Shown here piece by piece: positions 20,945-64,000 of a stretch of 64,000 nucleotides of DNA. The stretch is taken from contig OZ076409.1 of the NCBI GenBank assembly GCA_964187785.1, forward strand, positions 66,590,001 to 66,654,000, given 5' to 3'. The DNA is from Amphiscolops sp. MND2022 (lineage: Eukaryota). The notes below the pieces were generated by a model that had not been told where the DNA came from, made no database searches, and saw only the letters and a program-made list of their open reading frames with translations. The number at the start of each line of letters is the position of its first letter. Position 1 is the first letter of the stretch. Position numbers and translations under genes: made by a program.

Positions 20945-21655
20945 TTATTGCAGCGAAATTGACTGACAACCCGAACCAGTACGAAAAGTAGGTGCAAATT
21001 TGAAGCAATTACTATTACAATCGAACCAATAAGAACGGGAAATAGATCTCAAGAAACCTATACTGTCGTAAGCACGAGTATCTGAGGATGTAAATCCGTC
21101 TTTCTGGCGGTCACCAAGTGTCTTACTCTTCAAATGATTTCTAGAGTCTGAATTACGCAGAACTTCAGAATATCCTTCCGGTCTCTCAGACGGAACGTTC
21201 CATCTCTCTTTGGTCATATGTCCGGAATCGGCCATAAGGGCATTTTGAATCTGGGGAAGAACTTGATTACTAATTGCCTCACTTATAGCTCTTTGAATCT
21301 GCACGCTGACACTGTTCATCATCTCATCCATCTCCCGAGATATACGGGAATTTAACTCACTCGACAATCTGTTGATCTCAGCATTAGAACTGCCTCTAAC
21401 TGAGTTCTGACCTAATTCGGCATTTGGACTAGGTCCGTTGTTTTCAGAGTTAAATAACCTATTTTCGTCCTCATTTTCAAATTCATCACCAAAAGGACTA
21501 CCAGGTCTTCTGGCCTGGTTACTATTTAGGCTCTCACTTCTTCCATTTCTATTATAATGATTTCCTCCGAGCATTATGTCCAAATTCTCAATATCTGACA
21601 ACATTTCTGCCTCTCTTGATTTTCTCGCTTTCTTTTGTTTCCTTGTGGTAGGCAT
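20945..21655 (-). CDS. LTR-encoded Gag N-terminus (197 aa) reading out into flanking DNA (39 aa more)
   Basis: Nearly identical to the Gag N-terminus up to RAYD at the LTR edge, then continues in host flank. Expression unknown. Confidence 0.45.
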   Translation of the reverse strand: MPTTRKQKKARKSREAEMLSDIENLDIMLGGNHYNRNGRSESLNSNQARRPGSPFGDEFENEDENRLFNSENNGPSPNAELGQNSVRGSSNAEINRLSSELNSRISREMDEMMNSVSVQIQRAISEAISNQVLPQIQNALMADSGHMTKERWNVPSERPEGYSEVLRNSDSRNHLKSKTLGDRQKDGFTSSDTRAYDSIGFLRSISRSYWFDCNSNCFKFAPTFRTGSGCQSISLQ

Positions 21656-22909
21656 TGAAATTGAACCGGGTTGAATAATTTAATTATTAAAACCGGAAAA
21701 CTGACAAACGTCGTTGTAATAAAACAATCTTTATCAAAGTAAGGTTATGGAAATTGTGTCTCCCTTTGCAGGAAAGTGACTATATATACTCCTGAAAGAT
21801 GACACTTGCATTCCACGGATTCTTTGATCAAGATAATATCATGTGGTTATGTCCTCAACAGGTCATGTGACAAATATCATTACGGCATCGGGTATTAATA
21901 CTTCAAAGCAACTATTTTAGGGTGATGTCCCGATTGGGAAAATTCCTAACATTTTACAATCACAACTATTCATTCATCAAAGGCGGCATCAAAATATTTA
22001 CTAGCGCATCAAATGAAATTTCCGTCTATCAAAGAAACTAGTACTCATCATGAATATAAATAACATTGCATACATTCCTTTCTGGCACGTGCCACCACGT
22101 GACCTAAATTAGCTTTACAGCAGTGTGAAGCACCTCATGTTATTAGGCCCAATACGGCCAATTGACATATTAATAATTATATGCGTTGATTAACCGATTA
22201 GCCCCAAATACATGTACTGCATCACATTCCAAAGGAACGTAACAATTCCAATGGCCGGGAATAGCCGGCTAATTAATGGGCAAGTACTAATGAAATATGG
22301 CCTTAAGGGCCTAGCAAAAGGTTGGGTATTAAAACGAAGCATCGGTCAAGGACAAAGATCTGGCTATTATGAAAACATAAACTCAACAAACATGATTTGT
22401 TACATGTTAAATTATCACCTTATTTCAATCTTGAACTAATGGGACGGAACCGGCCATTTGACCAGTGTACCAAAAGAGAATATTAAAAGCGCGGTAATTG
22501 GCCTTACTCGGCCATTAATTAAATAGCATCAATAAACGAGATTGCATACTGCAATATGATTGGTTGAGGTAACGTGTTCAAGTGACGCTGGCGGTACATT
22601 GCCGTACGTTACTTGAACTCGTTTCCTATACTGCCTTACAGTTGCTCGTTTCATTGTATTTCCTATTGCTTTAAATTAGCGCCTTACAACTCCATCAACT
22701 CGATTGAAATTTCCAATTGTTAGATTTAACAGACTAATTGTATATAAAATGAGCGTCATCAATGATCATAATGCACAAAATAACAAAATGGCGTGAAAGT
22801 TTGATATCAATTGTAAGTTCTTAATAAATAGGTAAGGTTCCGGGTACATATTCTTGGCCAACTGCCGAAGTAGTTACTGTCGTGCCGTCACAGGCGGCAG
22901 CCTGCGACA
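21064..22909 (-). repeat. 3' LTR of element A
   Basis: Matches 35506-37351, with only two substitutions noticed by eye. Confidence 0.95.
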
Positions 22910-23603
22910 CTGCGGGTGTTATGAAAAGAAAGCATCCTGCATTAAGCCCATTCTCGTAGGCTTCTTTCCTCAACTTCGTGATGTGCTCGGGCTCGTTCCT
23001 TGGGGTGGATCGTTCCATATACCATCTGACTCTCTCACTCTTGATTGCATCTACAGAGCGGCCGCAAACCATACACCCAGTATATTGGGTCTCGCTGACG
23101 TTTTGGTAGGGCACCGAGTTCTGCACGTGATAAGACACATGAAAATCACTTACTGCGGGCTGGGTCAGAGGAGTGTCCTGGCTTGGCCCCCTCTCATGGA
23201 TTGGTGGAGACATCGGTGATTCTAGCACTGGCAGCAGCGTCTTGCAGAGCTCAATTCGTGTTTTCTCCGCTCTTTTTGACGGGGCATAGCACCTTTCGTG
23301 ATCAAAGTATTTTGTGTCTAACTTGGGAGTCACATCTTGCCCCGGCTGCCTGGTGCTTGGTCCTGCGACCATTTCTTCCTCCATACTGCTAGTCGTCATG
23401 ACACGTCCGGCAATTAGAATGGGGCTGGACACTACCTGCTTCTCCACCCTTCTGATCATTTCGTCCGTGTCCGTCGACCAGTCTGAGTCCAAATCAACTG
23501 AGGTTTCCTCATCGCTGCTTATGTAAATGACTGAATCGCCTGATGAGTCTGAGTCCAGTTCAGCCATCTCGAAGAGCTTTCCAGATTTTGCGTATTTATC
23601 CAT
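22821..23603 (-). CDS. ORF3 of element A: acidic protein of about 260 aa with a SIM-like motif and CxxC; stop codon lies inside the 3' LTR
   Basis: Open frame from ATG 23603 (track ORF starts at TTG 23651). The C-terminal peptide VSQAAACDGT.VTTSA.GQE.VPGTLPIY* is conserved with synonymous changes at the start of the element B LTR (55072-55160). Confidence 0.75.
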   Translation of the reverse strand: MDKYAKSGKLFEMAELDSDSSGDSVIYISSDEETSVDLDSDWSTDTDEMIRRVEKQVVSSPILIAGRVMTTSSMEEEMVAGPSTRQPGQDVTPKLDTKYFDHERCYAPSKRAEKTRIELCKTLLPVLESPMSPPIHERGPSQDTPLTQPAVSDFHVSYHVQNSVPYQNVSETQYTGCMVCGRSVDAIKSERVRWYMERSTPRNEPEHITKLRKEAYENGLNAGCFLFITPAVSQAAACDGTTVTTSAVGQEYVPGTLPIY

Positions 23604-24561
23604 GATGAATTTTTTAGCTATTTTGAAGTTTATGAAGGCAACTAGCTGCAAGTGAGATTCAAAGTTGAATGAATTTATAAAACTCTCCTCAGGCCGACTC
23701 GGGCCGTTTTCCCGGGGTTTCGTTTCAGCGGCAGAATCTTTGGTTAATCGGTCTGATCCGTCGTAAACTTTCCTGAATGGAGTTTCACAGCGGCGGTCCG
23801 CCCTTTGAATATCGGAACGCTGCCCCCCGAGCCCACCCTCTCAAGTAGGTAATCAGAGAGGTGTTAAGTTAACAACAACAAATAACTCCACTTCAAGAGG
23901 GTAATTAACATCAAGCTTGATATCAATTAACGGCACGCGTCAGATAAAGCCTACTAAAATGGCTTCAGCCAATCAAATTTGAGTTTCGATAAATTTGAAA
24001 AATGAATAATAAAGATGGCGAAAAATAATAATTTGAATAACTAAAATGGCGAAAATGATAAACCAAAATAATTTAGAATGGCGGAAACAACAATTTGAGT
24101 AACTATAATAACGGAAGTCCCAATTAGGATAACGAGCGAAATGGAACAAGATGATAAACTGAAATAGGGTAAACGGCCGTAATCGGCCAATAATTCCATA
24201 AGTTGTAAATAATGAAGTAAACTTTGTACATTTCGCTGGCAGACTCCATGTACTGAATAAATATGTAAATAATTAAATAATATTAGTCTGGTAATTTCTT
24301 CAGCCACGACCTCCAACTTTTATCTCTTTTCAATTGTTAACACGCATTTAGTTCCATTACCATTTAAATTGTTTACATTTGTATCCTTCAGTCTTTACTA
24401 TTCCGCTTTCCTTATCTGGATCTTCAACTTCGTTGTTGGCTTCTTCTTCCCTTTACGGAGCCCTCCGAGCCTTTCTTTCATCAGCCGTGTTAGGCCGTCT
24501 TCCCCATACTCTTCATCCGAATTTGGATAGAATCCCTTAGAACGAATTCTTCCACAACAGA

Positions 24562-27500
24562 ATGTCTTCAAAAGCAGGTTGGTCTGGGTTTTCATATTTT
24601 TGAACTAGTTTAACTTGATCAGAGCTAAGTTTGTTCACTAATTGCTTCCTGTTTCCACTACTTGGTGAACACGTGTTGATCACGTCCGTTCAGAATTTCG
24701 AACACTTCCGGAAGTTTTCTAATGCGGCAAATGGATTTCTATCAAGGAAGCATACCGCCAAATTTCATCTCCTTCTGTTTAGAAAACCAGACAAGTGATG
24801 AGACCCAAGTCCCAGCCAACCCAAGTTTAGACAATCCTGTTGAGACTGAAGTGTCAGCTCCTCATACCTCTGTTCTAACGCAATCCCAAGAGACCAAAGG
24901 GAGCACGGATAGCGAGGTTGACGTGACTACTTTCGCCGATGAGATGGTAGACATGATGGAGAAAGCCCAGACGGCAATTGCTCGCTCCCCAGATGGTACT
25001 GCCACTGTCACTTCTACTGGTGCTGATGACCGAACTCAGGAGAGGACTGAAACATTAGTCCAGGAACTAGTCAGGACAAGTACCCCAACGCTCCCCGATG
25101 AGGAAGTGTTGACCCAGTGTAACTTGTCTGCATTGGAGTCTGCACTCAGAGTAGCCACCTCGTCCAATTCCCAGCTCCCAGAACTTGTGGCCGTTGTAGC
25201 GTCACCTCCCAATGATGAAACTCTAACCAGGGCGCAATCTGGAGATGATAATGAATCCTCAGTGTACGAAGTCCCTGCTCTACCCATTGAGAAGCCCAAA
25301 GTCCACTATCTTACGGATTTCAGTGGGAGTGAGCAAACTGCAGATGAAAATAGCTTAGCAGGATGCCCTCCTTTGTACGGAACCAACCCACTGGAGATTG
25401 AGTCAGGAGCTGAAGCAGGGAGTGAGACCGGCATCAATCCCTCACATTCGATGCTCAGTAACCAAGACGGTGTGCCCCAGAGACGGCAAGATGACAGGCT
25501 TCCTGAATTATCAGGTAGAACTCGCGCCATCCTCAAAACCTACTTTGATGATGCACAGCCATTCTCTTTGCCCCTCGGACATCCAACTGTGGCTTTTACT
25601 GAGCCACAGATGTATCACCTCCTAAGGTCCCTCACTGACGAGACTATCCGAATGTCTTATACCACGATGGAGCGAATGGTGTTGGACGCAGTAAAGGGCA
25701 CCCCGACCGTGGCCCCGTCAAGGACCAGTCACTTCCAGAGCAGAGTTCGAGCCCCCACTCCCTTTGGATGCAGTGAATCAAGTGACGATGAAACTGATAA
25801 TCTCACTGGGGCCTGTCCCATAGCTGGTTCCTCGTCTGGAGCGGAAGGCACTGATACATCCGCTGGGTTCGAAGACAGCGATAGTTCCGGAGAGATGGCT
25901 CTGATCACTGAGACATTCAAGAAGAATCTCACGACGGATCTAGGACCAAATCCCACGCAGCAGTCCGGGAGCCAGTCCCAACAAGAAGAGCCTGGCCAAT
26001 CAGGCTTCAGCAGCCAAGATGCCACGTTGCTGGAAGTCCGCGATGAGGCTCTGGAACGCAAATCCAGAACAACTGCCAAGACGCAGAGGCAGAAACGCAT
26101 CAAGCGCACCACCCACAGAGGAGTCCCCATGCGTGAAGAATTTTTTGCAAAAATTGGTTGGACAAGGTCCTTCATTTCTGGACCCGCGGACCCTATCCAC
26201 AATCCTCTGATGGTTTGGTGTCACATTTGCAAAAGAAACTTTTCCATCCGCAGCAAAGGCACCATGGAAATCCTAAGGCACCACCGTTCAGAGAGGCATC
26301 TAAGAAAGGATCAGAGGTGGCGATATGAGCATCTAAAGAGTGTTGATCCCGTCACCAAGCAAGTCCAGCATCGTGTAAGAGGACGAAACGGAAAGCTTCT
26401 GAATAAGATTGAGTTAGCCAGAGAACTCCCACGTTTCATCCATTCGGAACTAGTGGACATCGGGGAACGATTCCCCTTTTATGACGATTTTATCCAGGGA
26501 CGGACCACTGCCATAGTCACCCCAGAGTCCAGGTCCAGGACCCAATTGGGCATCGTCATTGACTTCCTCAAGGACCACGGCGATTTTGCGATGCTACGCA
26601 ATCTATGGGCACGCCTTAGTTCATTCACAGACTACCAAGCTACTCTCTGTGACTTCGACTGGGGGGAAGAACGTATGACGGTAAGTTTTTATTTTCCCTA
26701 CTTGTAGGTTGACTCAATCTATTCTGCATTTTTGAAACATTCGTCTGTTTTCCAGACAATCTTCCAGCACCTGTTCAATTGCGCTATGAGCGAAATAGCG
26801 GAGTGCGTGGCTGCAGAACAGTGCTTTGCCATAGAATTTGAAGACAGCAATGTCAACCGCTTCATGTCCCTTCGGTTCTGGAAGGGGACTGAATTGTGTC
26901 GCGTCCTCGTCTGTCGCAGCGAGCTACCCTCTTCGGAATTGTCAGGAGAACTAGGGTCTCTCTCACGGCTCCTATCTGCAGTCTCCACCAATTGCGACGT
27001 GGTGGCTTGTTCTGGCTGCCCCGTTGACTTTGTTAGGACAATCGACCATTCCCCACTCTTCTCAAGAGCAGTGCAGGCGTCCTTCCGGTTTGAGACCTTG
27101 TCCCTCTCCAGACTGATGCACAAACCCAGTTATAGCGTCTTCGGGCATATCGACTTCTTTTCGGTCCTTCATGCCTTAGTCATCACCCTGGGTGGATCTC
27201 TCTCTGAGGATTGGGTACTGCAGAGCCCCACCTTATCTCAGGTAATCACTTTCCGATTATGGTAGGAATGTTGTACCTTGGACAGATAAGAGGCCCTGGT
27301 TATTTCCTTTACGGACACTAATACAATACGTTATTTAGGCCATAACTTCATGCAAATTGGATCTTCCCACTCTTCCTGTCCTATGTCAGGAACTCATCAT
27401 CGCCTGGAAGTCCGTTGTGCGCTACCTAACGGAACACTCACCCCGACAACAAGGACAGGGGGTTCGAACGAGAGTAAGTCCACTAAGAGATTGGTTTTCC

Positions 27501-28898
27501 TTCCCCTTAGGTCCCAACGTTAAATTTCGGTACCTTTCAAAATGTCCTCATAATTCAGGCTAACTGATATTTTCCCATTACAGGCACAGAGCTTTGAGTG
27601 GACCCTCATCTGTGATGAGTTCTTCACCATCAAATTGGAATTCTTTTGCAAGCTCGTCAGTGACTGTTAGTATCACTACTTAGCCTCCTCTAGGACGTGT
27701 CTTTAACTCATATATAAGGTCCGCCTTTGTTGTAGATACTTCCAGTTTTGCGGTCAACCTGCAACAGCGACGAGATGGGTCCTTCTTCCTGTGTGGTGAG
27801 GTCTCTCGTTATATACATCAACTCTGTTTCCGGATCTACACCGCTGATACAGTCCCATTGGAAAATGCATGGTTCCAGCTCCTCAATTTCCGTACTTCAG
27901 ACGGAGTTTTCATCCCCGAGGCGGAGTTTCTGGCTCGTCTCAAGATCACCAACAAGGTCGCAACAGCCAGTAAGCAGAGGTCAGAAGGGGTCCATTCTGG
28001 TCAAAAGACTGAGCGTTCCGTAATCCAGAAGACAGCGGAGGCAATCAAGTCGAAGTTTGTCCAAGACGGGCAAAACTACCTGAAGTACTTATTGGGAGAG
28101 GTCCTCCATGAACCCGGTCTTAGCTCTAACATCATCAAAGGTCTGGCTGCTTTTGATCCAACTGTCATGCTCAAGAGGCCAATCGACATTGCTCTTAAGC
28201 ACTTTGAGTTGTTATACAGCACTTTCCTCCTCCGCTCTTGGGTCCTCGAGGCCGATGAGTCAGCTTGTCGGGATGATTATTTGGCTCTTCTCGATCATCT
28301 CCGAGGGAATTACCCCCCTACCTATGACGTCACCAGTGCCTCTCGAGACTTGATTGAATTCATGATGACCTTGGACTTCCTTCAGTCACGGGAGCGGCTT
28401 GTTTATTTGTTTAAGCTTTGCTGTCTGTGTGCAACCTCTGTTACCCCTACTTATCCAGTAGTAACTGCCGGGAGTGTGAGTACGGCGGGTCACCGAGGCA
28501 GATTTACCGATGTTATTCTGCCTGTCCAGAGTTATATAAGCTCAGTTCCTGGATCAGCCGCTTTCTGTTGTAATGAAGCTAATCTGTCCAAATTTTCTTT
28601 ATTCGCTTCCTCCTTTGGACGATCTGCCTTCTCAGCCGATTACGACCCTTGGGCGTACGTTGACGATTTTGGCCGCTCCAAAATTTACAAATCGCTGCTG
28701 TCCACCTACAAATCCATTCTCTCAGTGCCTAAGGCAGTTTCCACTGAGGCAGGAACCAGGGGCGACGATAGTGTCGCCGATGAATGTGCTCTGAAAGCCC
28801 CCAGCGCTAGCAAGCGCAGGAGGATGAGTCGGAGCGCTTCTCGATCTAGGACCTCTTCTGTCGTGGATGAGTGTGTCCCTAGTTCTTCTAAAAACTAA
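24562..28898 (+). CDS. Antisense spliced cargo gene of element A: BED-finger, hAT-transposase-like protein of about 1228 aa. Predicted exons 24562-24577, 24783-26680, 26756-27241, 27339-27473, 27584-27655, 27736-27795, 27879-28898
   Basis: Six GT-AG introns (205, 75, 97, 110, 80, 83 nt) whose phases join the track ORFs 24722, 26732, 27357, 27748 and 27858 into one frame. WCHIC-x16-H-x5-H zinc finger at 26216-26299. A homolog sits at the same position in element B. Exon 1 and the last two junctions are less certain. Confidence 0.75.
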
Positions 28899-29171
28899 AT
28901 GTACATATGTAATTATGTACAACCAGTTGTAAACTTTGTTGATTTCTTTCCGTTTCTGTTATATTTTTATTTCTTGTCGTTGTGTTTATTTGTATTCCAT
29001 TTGTTGCCAATTTCTTGATCCCATATTATTCCCTTGAAGGGATCATTGTCAAACGTCCCGATATTTATTCAAAAAATACCACTTTCTGGGACTGAAAAGA
29101 AAAGAAATAATGATAAAAGGAAGAGAAAAGATAGTTCGGCGTCCGTTTTCGGGCACAATTTAATCTTTCCT

Positions 29172-32100
29172 TTAGTATCTAAAGTCTTCTGAGTAGTTAG
29201 GGGTAGGATTAGGTCTGAGATTATATTTCCCAGCTCTAGGACTCAGATTTTCATTTCCTTCTTCATTTTGCGGTATTTCGGGCACGATAATATCATCCCC
29301 CCTATTTGGAGAATTTTCTGCATCTTTTTCATTCATCAAATTTCTTTCTGGAAAGTTTGCATCGTCTTTTAGTCCTTCAGCCGTATTCGGCACAGATTTT
29401 TCTTGGGTTTTTGGGGAAACGGCCGGATTTGGCCAATCAAATTCGTCATTTCTAATAGCTTCAGTAGCTTTATTTCTTTTAGTGACGTCATCAATTAATC
29501 GTTCATTCCGGCTATGCGACGCGCGGTCAGTGAAATTTGATTCGTCACTCGTGATTACATAATCAACTTCATTCTCGCTTGCGTCATTTGCGTTCGGTTC
29601 TGCCGTAGTTGGCTGTTCGTCATTTGTCAAGCTGGTCGGAATAGTCTCTCTGCCTCGTGTGTCTAGTTGTTCGCCAAAGTTTGTTTCCCACGTTATTACA
29701 TACAAGTCGTCTTGCGGAATGATTATTTCATCATCCGGCTGTAGACGCTGTTCTCGGAAATTGTCCTCAAGTGGTTGATTTGGCACAAACTTTTTGAGAC
29801 GAATTCGATGCAATATCTGCGTTTTATTTGTATTAAGCCTGCGGACAATGTAATTCTCATTAGGTAAGGTCTTCTGGACTATAAACGGTCCAACCCAACG
29901 ATAATCCCTGAATGGAATTTTTGATCCTTGATGATCCGCTTTCGGCTGTAATACAAAACAGTAATCGCCCTCTTTGAGTGGGGCGGCTTTTGCTTTTCGG
30001 TCGTAATACTCCTTATATTTGATATATGACTGCATGATGTTCTGCTTTGTTTTGTCAATAAGGAGTTTGGTCCGGTTCTGGATTTCTTCGGCAAATTCAG
30101 TAGTCGGATGGATTGGCTCATTTGGATTCATTCCAAGTTTGTGATCCAATATGTTGTATGGGATTCTCCCATGGAACACTCTTGTGGGTTCGCATCCGAT
30201 ACTGGCATGATAACTAGTGTTATGATTGAGAACTGCTAAAGGCAAATATTTATGCCATTGTCGGCGATATTCCCCACATGCCATTTTCAGGTTCGTTTTC
30301 AATGAGGCATGCGTTCGCTCTAATTTCCCGATAGTTTGCGGGTGTTTCGTCGTTGCACATTTTAGGGTAATGCCTAAAATCTGTGTAATTTCCGCAATGA
30401 TCGTGGAGGTAAAGGCAGTTCCTTTGTCCGTAATGAGCGTCGTCGGTAGGTAAGAATGTTTGGTCATAATATCAATGATTGCTTTAGCTACATTGATCGC
30501 TGATGCGTCCGTAAGAGGATAAGCAAACAAGTATCGAGAGAAGACATCAATTGCAGTTAAAACATTTTCGTATCCTCCACTTGGGGGAAGATTCGGCAAT
30601 AAGTCGATTTGCATGGCGTCTTCGGGTCCAAGGTCCCATTCCGGCAAGTTAAGTAGTTCAGGCGTGATTGTTGCGTTTGGGACTCGTTTGTCCTTTGCAC
30701 ATTGTTCACACCCTTCTACCCACTTTTTGACATGTTTTGCCATGTTAGGGTAATAATACTTTTGTCTGATTTCCTGCAACATTTTTGAAATCCCGGGATG
30801 TTTATGCGCTGTCCCATGAAGGGAGTGGAGCACTTCCCGGAGTAGGTGTTGCGGGAGCAAAATTTGATGGTATTTAACATTCCCTGTTTCATCAAAATAT
30901 TGCCTTGTCAGGATTTCGTCTTTGAGTACGATTCGCTCCAGATTATTTGCATAGTGTCTATATCGAGCATCTTGTTGCAGTATGTTTTCTGAATAATCTT
31001 CATGAAGGAGTTTCGCCTTCAATTGTTGTAATACTGTATCTTTGGATTGCTCAATGATGATCTGGTTCATTTTCCTCAATCGGACTTGTACATCGGGGTG
31101 TTGCTTGACCAGATTTGTTGATAAAGTTTGTATAGTAACGGTGGGCTCATCAATTGCTGGGTTTTTCCTGATTGCTTCTTTCCTTGCCCAAGCCTGTTCC
31201 TCTGTCTCATCGTCGTCATTGGTGTAGAAGATTTGTTCTTCTTGCGACACCCCTGCGGATTGGACATTGATTTCAATTGGTAAAGTTTGTACGTCCTCAC
31301 GGATTTTCATGACTAATTTATCCTTCGGGTCTGCCTCCAATCGGGACAAATAGTCAGCTGCTGTATTCTGTGCCCCCGGGATGTGTGCTATGACAAAATT
31401 GAACTGAATCACATAATCACATGCATTCCACAGGGCTGGGGGTATTATTTTCGTTTGGAAAAATCTCGTGACCGCTTTGTTGTCCGTAAGGATGATGACC
31501 GGTTTCGGCGCACCCCAGAATATATGTCCGAATTCTTTGAATGCAAAGTAAATTGCAAGGAATTCTTTTGCATAAATTGACATCTTTATCTGGGCTGGGG
31601 TGAAAATTTTTGATCCGTATGCGACTGGTGCATACGATTTCCTGAGTGACGTGAATTTCTGGTTCGGGTCATCTTCGATTAAGACCGCGTATCCGGCTGC
31701 ACCAAAACTTGCGTCAGTCATTAGTGCTATTTGTTTGTTCGGAATGGGTTGTTGTAATGCCAAGTCGCAACATTTGTCAAGTGCTTTGTTGATTTCCTCG
31801 AATTGTTGGACCAATTCTTTCGATACCAGGACCTTTTCGTCACTCTTTAGCATCTTGTAGAATGGTGCAAGGCGTTCTGAAAGTCTTGGGACATAGTTTC
31901 TGTAGTAATTCAAGAATCCCAAGTAGCGCTGCAAAGCCTTTTTCGACTTTGGGAACTTGGTCTTTTCCAGAAAGTTTTGCACGTTTTGTTTCTGGGGTTT
32001 GACGCCTTGCGGGGTAATAGTCCGTCCGAGAAAATCAATTTCTTTGGCACCAAAGTGACATTTATGCATTGTCAATTTAAGGCCTGCTTCCTGAATGCAT

Positions 32101-34379
32101 TTGAATGTAGCCCTCAGGTTAGCTATGAGGTGGTCAGCATCATTTGCTGCGATGCCTATATCGTCCACGTACTGGGCACACTGATCCGCTTTGATGACTT
32201 TGTCCAGGTATTCTCTCATAAAACTCGAGAATGCGGATAGTGACCGGCTAAGGCCTTGTGCCAGACGTCTGTAGGCGAATGTGCGACTGGCAAAATTGAA
32301 AGCCAACATTTCAATTGAACGTTGGTCGGCCATTGGTAGACAATGGTATGCCTGCGAACAGTCTAATTTACAGAAGAGTTTTTTGCCTGCCAAGTGTTGG
32401 GCAGCATCAACCAAGGTGCTTACAGGGTGATTATTGTTTATATAATCATCCGAGATGAGGTTGTTGATTTTCCTCAGGTCAACCAAAAGTCGTAGCTTTC
32501 CATTTGGTTTCTTTTGGGCGAATATTGGGCTGGCATACTTGGAGAACGGTAAAGTGGTGATGATGCCATATTTGTGTAACATGGCTAATTCAACTAGGAT
32601 GTCCTCCTTCAAATTGATAGGAGCTGGAAGACTTTGACTATAGGCTGGGGAATCGTCCTTAGGTGTCAGTTTCACCTTGAAGTCCTCTTTCATGCCTATA
32701 TCGAATCGGTGTCGTGCAAAGATGTCGTGAAATTCCACTAACAATTCCTCTATTTTCTCCTTCTCTTCAGGAGTAAGGGTGGAATCTTTCCAGTCAAAGT
32801 TTTCTAAGAATTTTGCACGTGATTCTTCGTCTTTTGTGGGGTCAAGAGTCTCTAGGTCTTGTAGGGCTTGTAATTCTTGAAGGATTCGTTTTTGTATGGG
32901 TGTGTGTTCCTCAGGATTTCCAGGGTTTTCTGGAGTTGGGAACCAGTAATTTTCAGTGTTTTGTGGGTTTCTGTTTGTCTTGATCAGGCTACTGACGTAA
33001 TGGGCTGCTTGTTCTTGGTCGGTTTGTAACAAATGCCAGGTTGATGCCGGGTCTACCGGTTTGACGTATTTCATTTGCTCTGGCGTCATGACAGAGAAAT
33101 TGGCAATATGTAATCCCTTTTTGAGTTTATAGGGGTGGTCTGTGAAATTATTCACAGGTATCGATATGTTGCCATCATTCAGAGTGACCAAGGCTGGGCA
33201 AAAGGTGATGTCGCCTTCTTCATGTAGAAGGTCGCTCGGTTGTAAAATCCCAGTGACAGCATTTTCAGGATACAGTAGGGAATTGGTCCTAATTAGGACT
33301 CTGTCGTTTGGCGGAATGGTTATTTCAGTGGGGTTGAGAATTGGTTCTAGTACATTTGAATATTTATGATCAGCTGTTTTGAGCTGCATTGAAAAGAATG
33401 GGAAGTTTAGTATTCCTTGTCTCATGTCCAGGACTGTATGATTTCGTTGAAGGAACATTAGTCCAATGATCGGACCTGTCAGGTGTTCCATGACTATGAA
33501 AATCTCGTGAAACTCGATGTCACCAACTTCAAATTTGAGCTCTATGGTACTCTTGGGAGTTTCCAATTGCCCATTAGCGACCATTATTTGGAAATTCGGA
33601 GGCGGGCCCTCCCGGATAACAGATTGTGGAGATAAAAGTCGGATTTTCCGGAGGTCCATTTCAGGATTTGCACTGGACAGCGCTCCAGTGTCGATGAGTC
33701 CATCTATGGTCAATTCTCCAAAGTCCATTGGGAAATACAACATGCGTTTCTTGCATTTGAGATTGATGTTGGTTGACAAAGGTATACAGTCTGGTTCGCC
33801 GTCCCTTGTGATTAGGACATTTTGGAATTGTTTCTCGTCTAGTAGTGATTGTTGTATGGGCTCAGTATTGTTGTCATGGTTCTCGGTCCCCAATGGGTTT
33901 GGGAATACCGGGTGGCGTGTACCATCATTCATCTGCCATGTTTCAATCAATGCTCTGGTTTTCTTGTTATGGGTGATTGGTGGATTGTCATGGACTGATC
34001 TGTTATAGAGTTCTATATCATCAATAACGTATTGGAATTGCAACAAATCCTGGTTATAAAGTTCGGTGTCCCAATAGGGATCTCGTCCATAGTCAGGATC
34101 TATGTAGGTAGGATTGTAGTCATCTACCAAGGGAATGGGCCTGAATCGGCTATTGAAAACAGATGTGTAATCAGGGTCCCATACAGGAATTGGTTTTTGG
34201 AACAAATGGGTATTATTATAGGTAATAATGGTAGCTTTTTCCATCTGTTGCTGCCAGACAACAGAAGGGTAGCCCATCAGTTGCTGCTGATAGTTATGAA
34301 AGCTCTGAGTTGGAGGGTCCGATTTGATGTATTGTCGGACAGAGACTAATTGGTTATATTGGAGTCGTGGCGAAGTTAG
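29172..34379 (-). CDS. pol: Pol polyprotein of element A (protease, dUTPase-like region, RT, RNase H, integrase with GPF motif)
   Basis: LIDTGA, YVDD, MTDAS, HHCC finger, QIDL/TDKG/LERTH and WVGPF motifs. The frame is open upstream of ATG 34277 back to the slippery site. Confidence 0.95.
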   Translation of the reverse strand, partial: LTSPRLQYNQLVSVRQYIKSDPPTQSFHNYQQQLMGYPSVVWQQQMEKATIITYNNTHLFQKPIPVWDPDYTSVFNSRFRPIPLVDDYNPTYIDPDYGRDPYWDTELYNQDLLQFQYVIDDIELYNRSVHDNPPITHNKKTRALIETWQMNDGTRHPVFPNPLGTENHDNNTEPIQQSLLDEKQFQNVLITRDGEPDCIPLSTNINLKCKKRMLYFPMDFGELTIDGLIDTGALSSANPEMDLRKIRLLSPQSVIREGPPPNFQIMVANGQLETPKSTIELKFEVGDIEFHEIFIVMEHLTGPIIGLMFLQRNHTVLDMRQGILNFPFFSMQLKTADHKYSNVLEPILNPTEITIPPNDRVLIRTNSLLYPENAVTGILQPSDLLHEEGDITFCPALVTLNDGNISIPVNNFTDHPYKLKKGLHIANFSVMTPEQMKYVKPVDPASTWHLLQTDQEQAAHYVSSLIKTNRNPQNTENYWFPTPENPGNPEEHTPIQKRILQELQALQDLETLDPTKDEESRAKFLENFDWKDSTLTPEEKEKIEELLVEFHDIFARHRFDIGMKEDFKVKLTPKDDSPAYSQSLPAPINLKEDILVELAMLHKYGIITTLPFSKYASPIFAQKKPNGKLRLLVDLRKINNLISDDYINNNHPVSTLVDAAQHLAGKKLFCKLDCSQAYHCLPMADQRSIEMLAFNFASRTFAYRRLAQGLSRSLSAFSSFMREYLDKVIKADQCAQYVDDIGIAANDADHLIANLRATFKCIQEAGLKLTMHKCHFGAKEIDFLGRTITPQGVKPQKQNVQNFLEKTKFPKSKKALQRYLGFLNYYRNYVPRLSERLAPFYKMLKSDEKVLVSKELVQQFEEINKALDKCCDLALQQPIPNKQIALMTDASFGAAGYAVLIEDDPNQKFTSLRKSYAPVAYGSKIFTPAQIKMSIYAKEFLAIYFAFKEFGHIFWGAPKPVIILTDNKAVTRFFQTKIIPPALWNACDYVIQFNFVIAHIPGAQNTAADYLSRLEADPKDKLVMKIREDVQTLPIEINVQSAGVSQEEQIFYTNDDDETEEQAWARKEAIRKNPAIDEPTVTIQTLSTNLVKQHPDVQVRLRKMNQIIIEQSKDTVLQQLKAKLLHEDYSENILQQDARYRHYANNLERIVLKDEILTRQYFDETGNVKYHQILLPQHLLREVLHSLHGTAHKHPGISKMLQEIRQKYYYPNMAKHVKKWVEGCEQCAKDKRVPNATITPELLNLPEWDLGPEDAMQIDLLPNLPPSGGYENVLTAIDVFSRYLFAYPLTDASAINVAKAIIDIMTKHSYLPTTLITDKGTAFTSTIIAEITQILGITLKCATTKHPQTIGKLERTHASLKTNLKMACGEYRRQWHKYLPLAVLNHNTSYHASIGCEPTRVFHGRIPYNILDHKLGMNPNEPIHPTTEFAEEIQNRTKLLIDKTKQNIMQSYIKYKEYYDRKAKAAPLKEGDYCFVLQPKADHQGSKIPFRDYRWVGPFIVQKTLPNENYIVRRLNTNKTQILHRIRLKKFVPNQPLEDNFREQRLQPDDEIIIPQDDLYVITWETNFGEQLDTRGRETIPTSLTNDEQPTTAEPNANDASENEVDYVITSDESNFTDRASHSRNERLIDDVTKRNKATEAIRNDEFDWPNPAVSPKTQEKSVPNTAEGLKDDANFPERNLMNEKDAENSPNRGDDIIVPEIPQNEEGNENLSPRAGKYNLRPNPTPNYSEDFRY

Positions 34380-36097
34380 TTTTTTGACTCATCATTAGAG
34401 GATGAGGATTGGGAGCTCGATAATGTCGGTTTGGTCTGAGGTTTCTGAGCCTTTGGATTGGGTTTACCGTTATTGGCGTCATCTGGTCTGGTGCGTTTGG
34501 GTTTGAGATGTGCACCAGCACCTTGCCAACATCTTTCTTCCGGGTGGTTCTTTTTACCACAAGTGCCACACTCCGGGTACGTCTTTTTCTGAGTCTGTTT
34601 GCCTTGTTGGGCATCTTTTTCTTTTTTCTTCTTCAATTTCTCGCAATCTTTGACCATGTGGCCCTTTTCTTTGCAATAATTGCACGTTATATCACTCATC
34701 TGTACGTTGGAAGGAACAGTTTTTGTCTTGCCAATCGAAGATGTCATTGATGCTATGGGCAGGTCGTCAGACTCTTCAAGTGCATTCAGTTCCAGTTCTC
34801 GCTCTAGATGAGCGACAATTTCATCGTAAGAGCCATTCTCTAGTCTAGCCATGTTGACTGATCTTTTGAGCTTTGGTGGCAGTTTTGCATATAGGAGACT
34901 GTCAATCATTTTTTGGGCATTGTCTCCGAAGGCTTTTTCTGCTCCTTGGTTAAGCTCTTCAAGAAAGTCTGGCAATTTGGTCGTGTTAGGGTCAAAGACT
35001 AGGCGATGCCATTTGTGTTTTGCCGTTGCCTGAGATTCAGGTTTGACGTACTTTCGTCTGAAAATGACAAGTACATCTTCAAGAGTTTGTCTATTGGCGT
35101 TGCTGATGTTTCTGAATGTTTGGAGTGCATTCTTTCGCAGCAAGGAATGGAAGTGATTGATTTTCATTTGTTCGGTCATCTCAGGCTGCATCTTGATCAT
35201 CGTATGGAATAAATCCTCAAACAGCTCGAACTTCTCACTTTTTCCGTCGAATGTCATTGTGTTGGAGTTGACTGGGCGGATAGTGAGTTGTTGGGCCGTT
35301 GGACGGTTCTGCATACTAGTCAAAACATCTGCTAGCCTGTTGATGGGGTCTTGTTCTGATGCCAGAGCGGGTCGTTCTTGTGCTGGGATCGTCGTGTCGA
35401 GCAGCGGAAGGTCATCACAGGATCTGTTGAGATGAGTAGTGGATGGCATTCGTCCTGTGAGAAACTCAGGAACTTCAATTGGAGATTCGTTTTCTCCTGT
35501 CACCATGTCGTAAGCACGAGTATCTGAGGATGTAAATCCGTCTTTCTGGCGGTCACCAAGTGTCTTACTCTTCAAATTATTTCTAGAGTCTGAATTACGC
35601 AGAACTTCAGAATATCCTTCCGGTCTCTCAGACGGAACGTTCCATCTCTCTTTGGTCATATGTCCGGAATCGGCCATAAGGGCATTTTGAATCTGGGGAA
35701 GAACTTGATTACTAATTGCCTCACTTATAGCTCTTTGAATCTGCACGCTGACACTGTTCATCATCTCATCCATCTCCCGAGATATACGGGAATTTAACTC
35801 ACTCGACAATCTGTTGATCTCAGCATTAGAACTGCCTCTAACTGAGTTCTGACCTAATTCGGCATTTGGACTAGGTCCGTTGTTTTCAGAGTTAAATAAC
35901 CTATTTTCGTCCTCATTTTCAAATTCATCACCAAAAGGACTACCAGGTCTTCTGGCCTGGTTACTATTTAGGCTCTCACTTCTTCCATTTCTATTATAAT
36001 GATTTCCTCCGAGCATTATGTCCAAATTCTCAATATCTGACAACATTTCTGCCTCTCTTGATTTTCTCGCTTTCTTTTGTTTCCTTGTGGTAGGCAT
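34376..36097 (-). CDS. gag: Gag of element A (573 aa, two CCHC knuckles); first 197 codons lie in the 5' LTR
   Basis: CNYCKEKGHMVKDC and CGTCGKKNHPEERC knuckles, plus a capsid-like FDGKSEKFELFEDLF region. Confidence 0.93.
   Translation of the reverse strand: MPTTRKQKKARKSREAEMLSDIENLDIMLGGNHYNRNGRSESLNSNQARRPGSPFGDEFENEDENRLFNSENNGPSPNAELGQNSVRGSSNAEINRLSSELNSRISREMDEMMNSVSVQIQRAISEAISNQVLPQIQNALMADSGHMTKERWNVPSERPEGYSEVLRNSDSRNNLKSKTLGDRQKDGFTSSDTRAYDMVTGENESPIEVPEFLTGRMPSTTHLNRSCDDLPLLDTTIPAQERPALASEQDPINRLADVLTSMQNRPTAQQLTIRPVNSNTMTFDGKSEKFELFEDLFHTMIKMQPEMTEQMKINHFHSLLRKNALQTFRNISNANRQTLEDVLVIFRRKYVKPESQATAKHKWHRLVFDPNTTKLPDFLEELNQGAEKAFGDNAQKMIDSLLYAKLPPKLKRSVNMARLENGSYDEIVAHLERELELNALEESDDLPIASMTSSIGKTKTVPSNVQMSDITCNYCKEKGHMVKDCEKLKKKKEKDAQQGKQTQKKTYPECGTCGKKNHPEERCWQGAGAHLKPKRTRPDDANNGKPNPKAQKPQTKPTLSSSQSSSSNDESKN
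34379..34385 (-). promoter_or_regulatory. -1 ribosomal frameshift slippery heptamer A AAA AAC
   Basis: Sits immediately before the gag TAA. The -1 frame (LTSPRLQYN...QQLMGYP) is the pol frame. The same arrangement occurs at 58047-58053. Confidence 0.85.
35494..35505 (-). promoter_or_regulatory. Primer-binding site TGGTGACAGGAG abutting the 5' LTR
   Basis: TGG directly follows the LTR-terminal CA. The same 12-mer is at 56930-56941 in element B. Cognate tRNA not determined. Confidence 0.75.
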
Positions 36098-37351
36098 TGA
36101 AATTGAACCGGGTTGAATAATTTAATTATTAAAACCGGAAAACTGACAAACGTCGTTGTAATAAAACAATCTTTATCAAAGTAAGGTTATGGAAATTGTG
36201 TCTCCCTTTGCAGGAAAGTGACTATATATACTCCTGAAAGATGACACTTGCATTCCACGGATTCTTTGATCAAGATAATATCATGTGGTTATGTCCTCAA
36301 CAGGTCATGTGACAAATATCATTACGGCATCGGGTATTAATACTTCAAAGCAACTATTTTAGGGTGATGTCCCGATTGGGAAAATTCCTAACATTTTACA
36401 ATCACAACTATTCATTCATCAAAGGCGGCATCAAAATATTTACTAGCGCATCAAATGAAATTTCCGTCTATCAAAGAAACTAGTACTCATCATGAATATA
36501 AATAACATTGCATACATTCCTTTCTGGCACGTGCCACCACGTGACCTAAATTAGCTTTACAGCAGTGTGAAGCACCTCATGTTATTAGGCCCAATACGGC
36601 CAATTGACATATTAATAATTATATGCGTTGATTAACCGATTAGCCCCAAATACATGTACTGCATCACATTCCAAAGGAACGTAACAATTCCAATGGCCGG
36701 GAATAGCCGGCTAATTAATGGGCAAGTACTAATGAAATATGGCCTTAAGGGCCTAGCAAAAGGTTGGGTATTAAAACGAAGCATCGGTCAAGGAAAAAGA
36801 TCTGGCTATTATGAAAACATAAACTCAACAAACATGATTTGTTACATGTTAAATTATCACCTTATTTCAATCTTGAACTAATGGGACGGAACCGGCCATT
36901 TGACCAGTGTACCAAAAGAGAATATTAAAAGCGCGGTAATTGGCCTTACTCGGCCATTAATTAAATAGCATCAATAAACGAGATTGCATACTGCAATATG
37001 ATTGGTTGAGGTAACGTGTTCAAGTGACGCTGGCGGTACATTGCCGTACGTTACTTGAACTCGTTTCCTATACTGCCTTACAGTTGCTCGTTTCATTGTA
37101 TTTCCTATTGCTTTAAATTAGCGCCTTACAACTCCATCAACTCGATTGAAATTTCCAATTGTTAGATTTAACAGACTAATTGTATATAAAATGAGCGTCA
37201 TCAATGATCATAATGCACAAAATAACAAAATGGCGTGAAAGTTTGATATCAATTGTAAGTTCTTAATAAATAGGTAAGGTTCCGGGTACATATTCTTGGC
37301 CAACTGCCGAAGTAGTTACTGTCGTGCCGTCACAGGCGGCAGCCTGCGACA
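35506..37351 (-). repeat. 5' LTR of element A
   Basis: 1846-bp repeat with a TATA-like TATATATA at about 36223-36230 upstream of the gag ATG, conserved in element B at about 56211. Confidence 0.95.
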
Positions 37352-44374: not shown

Positions 44375-44605
44375 GTGATACAGCCCCATGTTACAACTCC
44401 ATTTACTGCTGAAACCGTTTCAAAATAGTTTCATGAAGTCTTTCAGGTTCTATTGTTTGCAAAGGAGAGATTGCAAACTGAGCTCCTCTTGAGCATTTAA
44501 CATGCGATAACAAATGTTACAATTTTCCCTTAATATTTTTGTGCATAGTGCATAATTGCTTTCTAGATATTCAAAACAGTTTATTTGACACGCAGTCAAA
44601 ACGAT

Positions 44606-44816
44606 ATCAAATGGTAATACTGAACCATCTATGGCTACCATGTCAAATGGTAAAAATGATTCATATATGGCGACCATGTCAAATGGTAATAATGAACCAT
44701 CTACGACGACCATGTCAAATGGTAATAATGAACCATCTATGGCGACCATGTCAAATGGTAATAATGAACCATCTATGGCGACCATGTCAAATGGTAATAA
44801 TGAACCATCTATGGCG
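44606..44816. repeat. Minisatellite with a 36-bp unit, about 6 copies
   Basis: Unit ATGTCAAATGGTAATAATGAACCATCTATGGCGACC. Confidence 0.9.
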
Positions 44817-45019
44817 TCGAGCTGTTCCATTAAAGGCCCATCTTTGGCCTGCCCTGGAATCTCAATCGGGAGCGACATTGAAACTCACCAAAAATCAAAG
44901 ATTACGGAAAATGAATTTCCTTAGTTTTCATAATAATATTTCTCAATTTGTATAATTCAAGTACCTTCAGCAAACAAACATGAAAGTCTTTTTCAAACCA
45001 ACCAATCCAATTGCAGTGG

Positions 45020-55071: not shown

Positions 55072-56929
55072 TGTCGCAGGCTGCCGCCTGTGACGGTACG
55101 AGTGTGACAACGTCGGCAACTGGACAAGAATTCGTACCCGGAACATTACCCATTTATTAATTGGGATAATTTACAAACTTAGAACTTTCATACTGTTTTG
55201 TTATTCAATATGTAATATGTTTGTTGATGTTGTTAGCTTCGATATATATGTACTTGCACATGTAAAATTAGTCTGTTAAAAGTCACATTTGAAGATTCAA
55301 ATAGTGTATTTGTAACTTCAAAAGATTGAAAGGCGCTTTGCTATTGTAAACGTAATACGTGACAATGTAGCTGTACAGTAGAAAGGAAACGAGTTCAAGT
55401 GAACGAAACTCCTATTCCGGAGACGTCACTTGAGCTCAACTCCTTAGCCAATCACGTTGCTCCTTTTCTATAAGTAATACCACTTTGATTATGTAATGGC
55501 CGAGTATGGCCAATTGACTCAATAATTGTGCCTTTTAGTCAAACGGCCGGTTCCGGCCACTTCGTTGGAATAGCCTGTATGTGTGTTAATTGGGTGTACT
55601 AATCGTAAATTACTGTAAATGTACTCTTAATAATGAATGAAAGCCCCAATGCCGCGCAATGAGCTTAATAAACCTAGTACTCACTCAAAAGCCGAATAAG
55701 GCTTTCTCCCTCTTTTATTACAGTGCTGAATTAATAAACCGGATTTGTCCATCTTCGGCATTGTCAGAAAGTGTGTTATTTTAATAATGCTGTATTATTT
55801 TAAGCAGAACTGATCATGTAATATTTAATCTAGTTCCTACTCACGTTGAATAATAGGCGCGTGGTAACGCGTGTCACAAGCACATTCCGAAGAGATGCCT
55901 TTTGCATTCCTTCAATAGACATTGGTATTTGTTGACAGGATGATGTTGATGATGTTTATAAACACGACACTTGAAGGTGCTGCTTGTGTACCCTGTTAAA
56001 TATCATTCTTTTGATGTTGAATTCCTAAGGACTACCCTGAAACTAGGAATTTTCCCAATCGGGACATCACCCTAAAATATCTGCTTTGAAGTGTTGAACA
56101 CCCTACCCGATGCTGTAATAACACTTGTCACATGACCCGTTGAGGCCATAGTCATATGATGTTTTCTTGATCAAAGAATTTGTGGAATGTGAGTGTCATC
56201 TTTTTAGGAGTATATATAGCTATATTTCTGTAAAAAAGGACACAAATCCCATACCTTTACTTTGATAAAGATTGAATTAATACAACGACTTTTGTCAGTT
56301 TTCCGGTTTTGATAATTGAATTATTCAACCCGGTTCTGTCTTAATGCCTACCACTAGAAAGCAAAAGAAAGCGAGAAAGTCTAGAGGACTTGAGATGTTA
56401 TCAGATATTGAAAATCTGGATATCATGTTAGGAGAAAACCATTTTGGTGCACGAGAAAGAGAAGGTAGCCTGAATAGCAATTTACCTAGGAGGTCTAGGA
56501 GTTTTGCTAGTAATGAGTCTGGCAATGGGGACGGGAACGGAAGTAGACCCAGGGGAAATATTGAACCTAGGATGAGTGCCGAGTGTGATCGCAATTCTAT
56601 CACAGGTCATTCTAGCGCTGAAATAAACAGATTGTCTAGCGAACTGAAATCTCGTATTTCACGGGAAATGGATGAGATGATGAATTCCGTAAGTGTCCAA
56701 ATACAGAGAGCCATACACGGCGCGATAAGTACTCAAGTACTTCCTCAAATCCAAAATGTTATAATGGCCGAACCAGGACACAGGATCAGAAAGGGATGGG
56801 ACGTTCCGGCCGAGAGACCGGAACCAAATTCCGAAGTTCAGCGAGACCTTAACGCAAAGAGTAGCTTAAGAAACGAACAATATGTGAATCAATTGAACGG
56901 TGATTACCCTGACCTAAATGTTCATGACA
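55072..56929 (+). repeat. 5' LTR of element B (1858 bp, inferred by homology)
   Basis: TGTCG start and TGACA end followed by the PBS. The partner LTR is outside the window. Predicted TSD is CTAAT (55067-55071). Confidence 0.8.
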
Positions 56930-58056
56930 TGGTGACAGGAGACAACGAATCTCCAAATCCAGTTCCTGAGTTTCTCACAGGACGCATCTCATCCCGAAAT
57001 CATCTCGACAGGTCCTTTGAGGACATCAACCTCGACACGACGATCCCAGCACAAGAGAGAATCGCTACGGCTGCTGACTCCGACCCCATCACCCGACTGG
57101 CAGACGTCTTGACTACAATGCAAAATAGACCGACAGCCCAACAACTCACCATACGCCCAGTCAACTCAAATACCATGACATTCGATGGCAAAAGTGAGAA
57201 ATTCGAGCTGTTCGAAGACCTATTTCACACTATGATCAAGATGCAGCCAGAAATGACTGAGCAAATGAAGATCAATCACTTCCACTCTTTATTGAGGAAG
57301 AATGCTCTTCAGACGTTCAGAAATATCAGCTCAAGCAACCGATAAACTCTAGAGGACGTACTAGTCATCTTTAGACGGAAATACGTCAAACCCGAGTCAC
57401 AGGCGACTGCCAAACATAAATGGCACCGCCTAGTCTTCGATCCCAATACGATGAAGCTGCCTGATTTTCTCGAAGAATTAAACCAGGGAGCCGAGAAGGC
57501 GTTTGGTGATCATGCACAGAAAATGATTGACAGCTTGCTCTATGCAAAATTGCCACCTAAGTTGAAGCGGTCTGTCAACATGGCCAGACTAGAAAATGGC
57601 TCATATGATGAAATTGTTGCTCATTTGGAGAGAGAGTTGGAACTCAACGCCCTTGAGGAATCAGATGACCTACCAAAGGCCACAATGACCTCCTCGACTA
57701 CAAAATCTAAAACTCCTCTGTCCACTGGGCAAATGTCAGACATTACTTGCAATTATTGCAAGGAAAAAGGCCACTTGGTCAAAGACTGCGAAAAACTGAA
57801 AAAGAAAAAAGAGAAAGATGCCCAACAAGGCAAGTCAACGCAGGAGAAAACATACCCGGAGTGTGGCACTTGTGGCAAAAAGAACCACCCGGAAGAACGA
57901 TGTTGGCAAGGTGCTGGTGCACATCTTAAACCCAAACGCACTAGACCTGAGGACTCAACTGAGATTAAGCCCAATCCAAATGCTCAGAAACCTCAGACCA
58001 AACCGACATCATCGGGCTGCCAATCCTCATATCCTAATGATGAGTCAAAAAACTAA
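56344..58056 (+). pseudogene. gag: Gag of element B with a premature stop
   Basis: TAA at 57343-57345 where element A has CAA (Gln). The same frame continues to 58056. Confidence 0.85.
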
Positions 58057-63260: not shown

Positions 63261-63503
63261 AAAAGATTGAATTTTGGCCAGGAGACAAGCCTTGGACCTA
63301 TTCCTTTTCTTCTATCATTTCATTTCTTTTATTTTTTCAGTCCCATGCAACATGGTATTTTTTGAATAAATAATGGGACAACCGAAGAACCCCTTTCAGG
63401 TAAATAAATACAGAGGCATTGCAACAAATGGAGATACAAAAGACAACAAAACAGAAAAATAACAAAGTTTACAGTTCATAAGTACATAAATACATATGTA
63501 CAA

Positions 63504-64000
63504 TTAGTCCTTAGAACAACCGGCAGGAGATTCTCTGACGACGGACGAGGCTCTCGAGCGGGATCTGCTCCTCTCCATGCGCTTCCGTTTGCGGTCACCG
63601 GGCGGGACTACTGCAGGCATATCTCCAACGCTGGAAGACGTTGTCTCATCGAGGCCCACTTCACCTAATCCAGAAAGGGCGGAACGATATGACGTAAGAA
63701 GGGACTTGTAAATTCTATTCCTACCAAACTCGTCAACGGAAGTCCAGGGGTCGTATGAGGCAGATGAGACAGTTTGACTGAAGGAGGCAGAAAGCAGAGA
63801 AAACTTAGCCAAACTAGAGTCACTGATACAGAAGGCAGTGGAGTCCGGAACCCCTGACAGATAACTCTGGACGGGTAAAACCACGTCTGTGAGTCTGTTC
63901 TGATGTTTTGTAGTGTTGGCAGTTCCAATACGTACTGTTGGGTATTGAGGACTTTCAGACGTAATGCATAAACAACTCAACTTGAATAGATATAACAGAC
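63504..64000 (-). CDS. 3' end of the antisense cargo gene of element B
   Basis: Aligns to the C-terminus of ORF 27858-28898 (LFKL.CLC, TDV.LPVQSY, YDPW..VD.FGR..IYKSLL). Open to the window edge. Confidence 0.85.
   Translation of the reverse strand, partial: LLYLFKLSCLCITSESPQYPTVRIGTANTTKHQNRLTDVVLPVQSYLSGVPDSTAFCISDSSLAKFSLLSASFSQTVSSASYDPWTSVDEFGRNRIYKSLLTSYRSALSGLGEVGLDETTSSSVGDMPAVVPPGDRKRKRMERSRSRSRASSVVRESPAGCSKD

Follow-up and report, generated by a model that had tools for sequence, protein, structure and literature searches.

Gypsy elements of plants, and Boty of the fungus Botrytis with its gene brtn, are established carriers of antisense open reading frames (ORFs) between pol and the 3' LTR (PMC7264820; PMC11963269, PMC4093653, PMC8365987). 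The origin and function of such extra ORFs in LTR retrotransposons have been stated as unknown (PMC7264820). Among the plant examples, maize Grande gene23 is described as having its own promoter and being nuclear, and the Retand ORFs as carrying a domain named Transposase_28 (accessible portions of PMC7264820; PMC11963269, PMC4093653). A review of the plant ORFs merely urges a search for spliced antisense transcripts (PMC7264820).

HTLV-1 HBZ and the APH proteins of HTLV-2/3/4 come from spliced antisense transcripts and are nuclear regulators of their element's own transcription (PMC10186651, available text). Animal LTR elements have captured and kept extra non-env genes, namely the rotifer ORF3s and CERV of C. 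elegans Cer1; the rotifer ORF3s are described as expressed from the element's spliced messages (PMC5408684), and the available parts of PMC5408684 and PMC10309623 describe no antisense gene for either, the word antisense being absent from the CERV paper. None of the animal accessory ORFs in the accessible text of PMC5408684, PMC10309623 and PMC8220671 is described as antisense, and no such gene is described in the available text on LTR-rich animal genomes (PMC6451197, PMC9911081) or a brown alga (PMC12477816).

The window analysed here, the whole 64,000-nt stretch of DNA from Amphiscolops sp. MND2022, holds a Gypsy element in which an antisense gene with five conserved introns lies between pol and the 3' LTR. 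Wnt genes in the genome, which measures about 1.07 Gb, mark the host as an animal. Comparison of related copies establishes the gene model, a fixed place in the element, purifying selection, conserved splice sites and modular exchange. As to what the protein does, we favour, with a probability of about 0.5, an accessory nuclear DNA-binding regulator of the element that would act in trans on its transcription.

The plant antisense ORFs (Grande gene23, rice RIRE2, the Retand TRP28 ORFs and ORF2 of bean pvRetro13) likewise have a Gypsy host, the same position and orientation, and a presence in most copies, as far as the available text of PMC7264820, PMC11963269 and PMC4093653 goes. The present gene differs in its animal host, in having no Pfam match to Transposase_28 (TRP28, PF04195) or an SMC-like domain, in its five conserved introns (introns go unmentioned in the accessible portions of PMC11963269 and PMC4093653), in a length about twice that of pvRetro ORF2 (436-631 aa in the examples compared), and in being paired with a second, sense ORF3. 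Boty brtn has a fungal rather than an animal host. HBZ belongs to a retrovirus, is driven from the 3' LTR rather than from an internal region and is a 31-kDa bZIP protein (PMC10186651, available text), whereas the gene described here encodes a 1259-aa multi-domain protein in six exons and overlaps no sense ORF. By position, ORF3 of the element resembles the sense accessory class of the rotifers and CERV; the antisense gene does not. A multi-intron antisense gene in an animal Gypsy element was not found in the literature searched, which takes in few subscription papers and no Repbase entries. Antisense extra ORFs as such are known from plants and a fungus; the five-intron case in an animal Gypsy element appears to be new, although a precedent for introns may exist: brtn, if it has introns, would be a fungal precedent for a multi-exon antisense gene.

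Host element and gene model

The host element (element A) is an intact Ty3/Gypsy LTR retrotransposon. Its LTRs differ at 2 positions over 1846 nt, a 5-bp TSD brackets the entire element, and Pfam searches gave the Gypsy order of pol domains and a gag zinc knuckle; matches of its reverse transcriptase include Ty3, foamy virus and caulimovirus-type structures. No polypurine tract directly precedes the 3' LTR (of the final 15 nt, 7 are purines), the best purine run lying 356 nt upstream of the junction, which ORF3 crosses. ORF3, without a Pfam match, and the antisense gene are arranged head-to-head, both between pol and the 3' LTR.

Table 1. Positions of the features in the window
Feature	Position	Strand	Description
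Element A	21064..37351	-	Whole Gypsy (Ty3-like) LTR retrotransposon, 16,288 nt; LTR pair, TSD, gag and pol
3' LTR of element A	21064..22909	-	1846 nt, TG..CA; TSD TATAC at 21059-21063
ORF3	22821..23603	-	Second extra ORF, 260 aa, sense to gag-pol; 3' end 89 nt into 3' LTR
Candidate internal promoter	23880..24330	+	Conserved non-coding blocks; AANATGGC and CCAAT-type motifs, (nearly) plus strand only
Exon 1	24562..24577	+	ATG and 13 nt
Intron 1	24578..24782	+	205 nt, phase 1; unusually conserved; contains palindrome TTCCGGAA
Exon 2	24783..26680	+	Fast-evolving acidic Ser/Thr/Pro-rich N-terminus, then conserved basic region and C2H2-type finger (26219-26299)
Intron 2	26681..26755	+	75 nt, phase 0; GT 40/41, AG 38/41
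Exon 3	26756..27241	+	162 aa; predicted helix, three strands, helix, strand (low confidence)
Intron 3	27242..27338	+	97 nt, phase 0; GT 41/41, AG 38/41
Exon 4	27339..27473	+	45 aa; 135 nt in 39/41 copies
Intron 4	27474..27583	+	110 nt, phase 0; GT 41/41, AG 41/41
Exon 5	27584..27665	+	82 nt, 10 nt more than originally predicted
Intron 5, corrected donor	27666..27735	+	70 nt, phase 1; GT 39/41, AG 40/41
Exon 6, last	27736..28898	+	Helical domain, then basic disordered tail; absorbs previously predicted exon 6, intron 6 and exon 7
AATAAA, candidate internal poly(A) signal	29064..29069	- (gag-pol strand)	About 100 nt past pol stop
pol ORF (PR-RT-RH-INT)	29172..34388	-	1738 codons, no interruption
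gag ORF with CCHC knuckle	34376..36097	-	Frame starts within 5' LTR, continues across PBS
PBS-like sequence	35494..35505	-	Begins TGG, abuts 5' LTR; kept in close copies
5' LTR of element A	35506..37351	-	TSD TATAC at 37352-37356
Element B	55072..64000, extends past window	+	Related full element; continuation L071; LTRs 1858 nt, 99.3% alike

With the last exon as query, the genome yielded 7,327 first-look candidates. Of these, 141 were scored; 32 are 96-100% identical to the query, and the others lie near 60%. The near set comprised 40 divergent copies plus the continuation of element B (L071), 41 in all, with a protein about 60% identical. Twenty copies of a second clade in the same genome (far copies) were fetched through a distant protein relative, P0127; their last exons are 26% identical to the window's and their pol about 70%. 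A third subfamily, 35% identical, is represented by six near-identical copies. Copies were collected with the antisense gene as query, so presence counts cover gene-bearing copies only. ORF3 was found in 38 of 40 near copies, and the far clade keeps the layout of ORF3, gene and pol (ORF3 in 19 of 20 copies, pol in 20 of 20).

That the antisense gene is real is near certain. The original prediction had fused seven exons into a frame of 1228 aa, and these do join without an internal stop, across six introns that all read GT..AG, on the strand opposite gag-pol. A spliced-type antisense gene was upheld, with five introns rather than six: the predicted intron 6 is coding, the intron 5 donor is shifted 10 nt downstream, and the corrected gene has 6 exons, 5 introns, 3780 nt and 1259 aa. 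In the single sequence, 15 of the 59 GT-AG pairs in the last stretch leave an open frame; phase matching alone could therefore not settle the model, and related copies were used.

At introns 1-4, 38-41 of 40 or 41 near copies retain the splice sites. By comparison, GT and AG dinucleotides within the introns are retained in an average of 33% and 29% of copies, a few of them in nearly 100%. For intron 1, tallied in 40 copies (L062, which is missing its 5' part, was excluded), the ATG is kept in 40/40, the GT in 38/40 and the AG in 40/40. Introns 2-4 show 32-43% identity against 60-75% in exons of the near copies, and their lengths vary among the 41 copies and in many cases are no multiple of 3. 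The acceptor of intron 5 (27735) is kept in 40/41 copies, but the donor first proposed in only 25/41. The true donor is at 27665/27666, where the preceding codons encode Ser (40/41) and Asp (41/41) and vary synonymously, and the split codon encodes Tyr (40/41).

Intron 6 (27796-27878) was rejected: GT is present in 4/41 copies and AG in 0/41, its length is 83 in 37/41, and it has codon periodicity in the frame of the last exon across the 41 copies. Between 27738 and 27878, stops occur in 4/41 copies in that frame, compared with 29 and 40 in the other two. The previously predicted exon 6 has a pN/pS of 1.5 in its former frame, and the whole stretch 0.23 in the frame of the last exon. Of the six junctions put forward for RT-PCR, 27655/27736 and 27795/27879 are accordingly wrong by copy comparison, and the other four are kept.

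At the measurable sites of the far clade, with the intron 4 acceptor left out, splice sites lie at homologous codons (D2 20/20, A2 19/19, D3 18/18, A3 20/20, D4 20/20, A5 20/20), and the 16-nt exon 1 with its unusual GTTGG donor is found in 15/20 copies. The junctions of introns 2-5 are unchanged in the third subfamily. The part of element B beyond the window includes ORF3 and a counterpart of the antisense gene with matching introns, which settles in the affirmative the conservation of intron positions there; these positions are the same in all three subfamilies. For a homologue, P0061, none of the scored matches in this genome exceeds 39%, so the gene family is probably present in at least one other organism. 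There are 395 relatives among protein representatives, and none of the 10 looked up bears a name; repeat masking can conceal a large, selected protein family of this kind.

Fixed place, selection and exchange between pol backbones

Pol lies downstream on the opposite strand in 39/40, 20/20, 29/29 and 6/6 copies, that is, in 94 of 95 from three subfamilies. When the ends of 10 close copies were inspected, seven had LTR pairs 99.7-100% identical and 5-bp TSDs of their own, two had a different LTR type, and in one the stretch retrieved contained no 3' LTR. Per-exon dN/dS among young copies is 0.03-0.32, a mark of purifying selection, compared with 0.18 for the 3' end of pol.

Introns of a gene on the opposite strand appear as CT..AC in the genomic RNA, are left unspliced and survive reverse transcription. 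This holds for each of the five introns here, which read CT..AC on the genomic-RNA strand and, by established splicing rules, persist, in agreement with the original proposal that antisense introns escape removal. An RNA-copied element is able to retain a five-intron gene over long evolution simply through orientation.

Trees of the gene and of integrase, built from the 20 sequences with both parts intact, agree on the deepest split (support 1.0 each; Mantel rho 0.73, n = 20). Within the near clade alone rho is 0.06 (n = 14). Distance matrices computed over 41 sequences for the separate parts of the gene correlate with one another at 0.75-0.86; the corresponding values are 0.03-0.09 for integrase, 0.12-0.21 for the inner LTR and 0.12-0.23 for ORF3. 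Between the window's element and another copy (L054), integrase is 99.7% identical, and the last exons differ by about 40%. This uncoupling from integrase, LTR and ORF3 indicates, by sequence comparison, that recombination shuffles the gene as a module among pol backbones within the clade, probably through template switching; antisense accessory genes, then, recombine as modules.

Divergence of this kind bears on a reading in which the protein is an anti-silencing or counter-defence factor directed against host piRNA or chromatin silencing, with conflict as the force that keeps divergent alleles moving from one pol backbone to another. Mean protein distance is 0.50 for the gene against 0.11 for integrase, a far faster divergence that is strongest in the N-terminus (nucleotide distance 0.45), and the gene's parts travel together as an intact module. 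We consider this quite unlikely, as every dN/dS, taken as an exon-wide average, is well below 1 and no host target is known. It overlaps the reading as a transcriptional regulator, from which it differs in target.

The agreement of gene and integrase across the deepest split would instead suit an expressed protein that acts later in the cycle: it could tether the complex of cDNA and integrase to chromatin, assist its nuclear import or integration, or, like CERV, serve RNA export or packaging. A transposase-derived scaffold would be suited to binding DNA ends, and an animal LTR retrotransposon, Cer1, needs its accessory protein CERV for export of genomic RNA (PMC10309623, available text). The uncoupling from integrase within the clade argues the other way, and we hold this reading to be unlikely. 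The integrases themselves differ by only about 4-5%, so uncoupling would be tolerable even for a partner of integrase.

Protein features and possible hAT ancestry

The N-terminus of the protein is acidic and evolves fast; a C2H2 finger follows, and the C-terminus is helical. The finger (W-C-x2-C..H-x4-H) is conserved, aligns with the finger of host hAT ORFs at only E 0.14-0.22, and gave no Pfam match to zf-BED. A model of the protein has a weak structural match to residues 367-609 of Hermes, and its Atlas neighbours include proteins with PF05699 or FAM200/GTF2IRD2; sequence and profile searches gave no significant hAT match. The likely order of parts, in prediction, is zinc finger, RNase H-like strands, helical insertion and C-terminal region. 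A DDE triad is not conserved at the positions expected from predicted strands and from the hAT motif: E/A follows strand 1, C-S-G follows strand 4, and no conserved Glu follows the LFKL helix. A retroviral env or env-like ORF was also considered and rejected, given the antisense orientation, the soluble helical model and the lack of an env Pfam match.

The likely part order would be shared with hAT transposases (Hermes; PF05699) and their domesticated derivatives, alongside the weak structural match. Differences are the long extra acidic N-terminus, the lack of a conserved DDE triad and of TIRs, and the setting of the gene within an LTR element rather than in host chromatin or a class II element. 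On these model-based likenesses the protein is perhaps a catalytically dead descendant of a hAT transposase. This would be a candidate DNA-transposase origin for one antisense extra ORF, a class of unknown origin and function (PMC7264820).

A nested DNA transposon, recognisable by TIRs and an 8-bp TSD, had been named as the alternative to an antisense gene of the retrotransposon. No inverted pair with an arm at each end of the gene was found among the 25 longest of 83 pairs between 22900 and 29200, and the duplication present is the 5-bp TSD of the whole LTR element. No nested transposon is present now, although the protein may derive from a hAT transposase. A broader form of the same idea, that a nested hAT transposon or a recently captured host gene is a passenger with no role for the element, is highly improbable and already largely refuted. 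It draws on the hAT resemblance, on a genome rich in hAT elements (150 scored PF05699 matches) and on the movement of the gene independently of pol. It is opposed by the missing TIR pair, the constant place and orientation, strong purifying selection and the absence of a free-standing copy from the sample, which is biased to the best-scoring matches; without a conserved catalytic triad, self-mobilisation would moreover be impossible.

Candidate expression signals and proposed mechanism

The gap of 950 nt between ORF3 and exon 1 is non-coding and contains strongly conserved blocks that would fit an internal promoter. AANATGGC is present on the gene's strand in 40/41 near and 14/20 far copies, with no occurrence on the opposite strand; 27/41 near copies have a CCAAT-type box, and 38/41 keep the palindrome TTCCGGAA of intron 1. 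The motifs upstream and in intron 1, counted without a shuffle control, we take as candidates that resemble YY1, NF-Y and ETS sites. In the spacer that separates the stop codons of pol and the antisense gene, AATAAA is found on the gag-pol strand, at a conserved position about 80-120 nt past pol, in 40/41 near copies, against 18 expected by shuffling, and in 17/19 far copies. Spliced expression of the gene from integrated copies is very likely, because its splice sites would otherwise not be conserved.

Conservation is higher in intron 1 and the upstream blocks than in the adjacent coding sequence, and the gene converges on pol. Both would suit a reading with the antisense RNA as main effector, dampening the element by double-stranded RNA or transcriptional interference with the protein secondary, a role proposed for plant antisense ORFs (PMC7264820). 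Purifying selection at the codon level across the 1259-aa frame makes this improbable, and the candidate sense poly(A) signal would limit overlap with the gag-pol mRNA.

We return to the protein as a regulator of the element's transcription, a reading in which a full host-style gene would ride within an RNA-copied element of a very large animal family. In integrated copies, transcription of the gene would start at an internal promoter (about 23880-24560), and the transcript would be spliced like an ordinary mRNA. Most gag-pol mRNA would end at the spacer AATAAA, leaving little overlap between the two messages, and only read-through would yield packageable full-length RNA. The protein is predicted to bind element DNA through its zinc finger and hAT-like scaffold, with the acidic N-terminus as effector region, and to promote or tune transcription of full-length copies in trans without cutting DNA.

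A more far-reaching version is possible but doubtful, namely that a class I element domesticated a class II enzyme. A five-intron hAT transposase gene would have been captured, its catalytic site disabled, and the gene kept in thousands of copies, across species, as a swappable antisense regulatory cassette; the internal poly(A) signal and divergent promoter would create three transcription units, with the antisense protein controlling full-length RNA. If so, gag-pol, the antisense gene and ORF3 would be separate units as in a complex retrovirus. The family offers thousands of natural copies at three levels of divergence and a precise gene model with testable junctions. On the antisense strand, the spacer after pol carries a conserved TGTA-rich block, and AATAAA is mostly absent from it.

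Polypurine tract, LTR junctions and ORF3 of element A

A polypurine tract was looked for at the usual place before the 3' LTR of the Gypsy element A (22910-22940, minus strand) and none was found. Despite this, the element A family is of recent age and has clearly spread by retrotransposition, which means that an atypical site must serve to prime plus-strand synthesis. On the minus strand before the 3' LTR, the LTR junction is crossed by the reading frame of ORF3, the second extra ORF of the element. The predicted ORF3 protein is acidic at its N-terminus and contains a CxxC motif, and searches against Pfam returned no match. ORF3 and the antisense gene, the five-intron gene opposite gag-pol, are arranged head-to-head, and ORF3 has been swapped independently of that gene. 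At the other end of the element, the gag reading frame begins approximately 600 nt inside the 5' LTR (35506-36121) and continues through the PBS; a copy of the gag N-terminus is therefore also present in the 3' LTR (ORF 20945-21679).

Conserved non-coding sequence at the antisense gene

Conservation across the non-coding intron 1 (24578-24782) is approximately 0.6-0.85, above that of the neighbouring coding sequence, and its length is constrained to 194-205 nt. A cis element may lie within this intron, or recombination may be frequent there (a hot spot). Two conserved TGTA-rich blocks, alike in sequence, lie upstream of the antisense gene (24200-24290) and directly after its stop codon (28899-28945), and are possibly 3'-end processing signals.

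Rearranged copies and other features

In two copies among genomic loci L138-L141, the antisense gene is 99% identical to that of the window while the LTRs are only about 70% alike; these copies are recombinants between subfamilies. Element segments at two further loci, L062 and G000:C5:60771495-60775848, are in tandem or partially duplicated; the arrangements seen are a second gene end lying after a pol end, and a set of three last-exon matches spaced approximately 1.77 kb from one another. Elsewhere in the window, members of a dispersed repeat family lie on the flanks of the protein-kinase ORF, and the fragmented LTR-type element contains a near-perfect 150-nt inverted repeat at 41065-41518.

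Additional features annotated in the window
Feature	Position	Strand	Details
Reverse-transcriptase ORF fragments, another retroelement	1-1603 (window start)	+	
Dispersed non-coding repeat family	1965-2641, 13033-13730, 39588-39878, 51668-51886	both	72-92% alike
Inverted repeat, perfect	11950-12233		57 nt
Protein-kinase ORF, intronless	13777-14892	-	Pfam Pkinase, E 7e-75
ORF3	22821-23603	sense to gag-pol	conserved, 260 aa
Separate LTR-type element, fragmented	39946-43095	+	zinc knuckle and aspartyl protease in 39946-41301
Tandem array	44565-44852		36-nt unit
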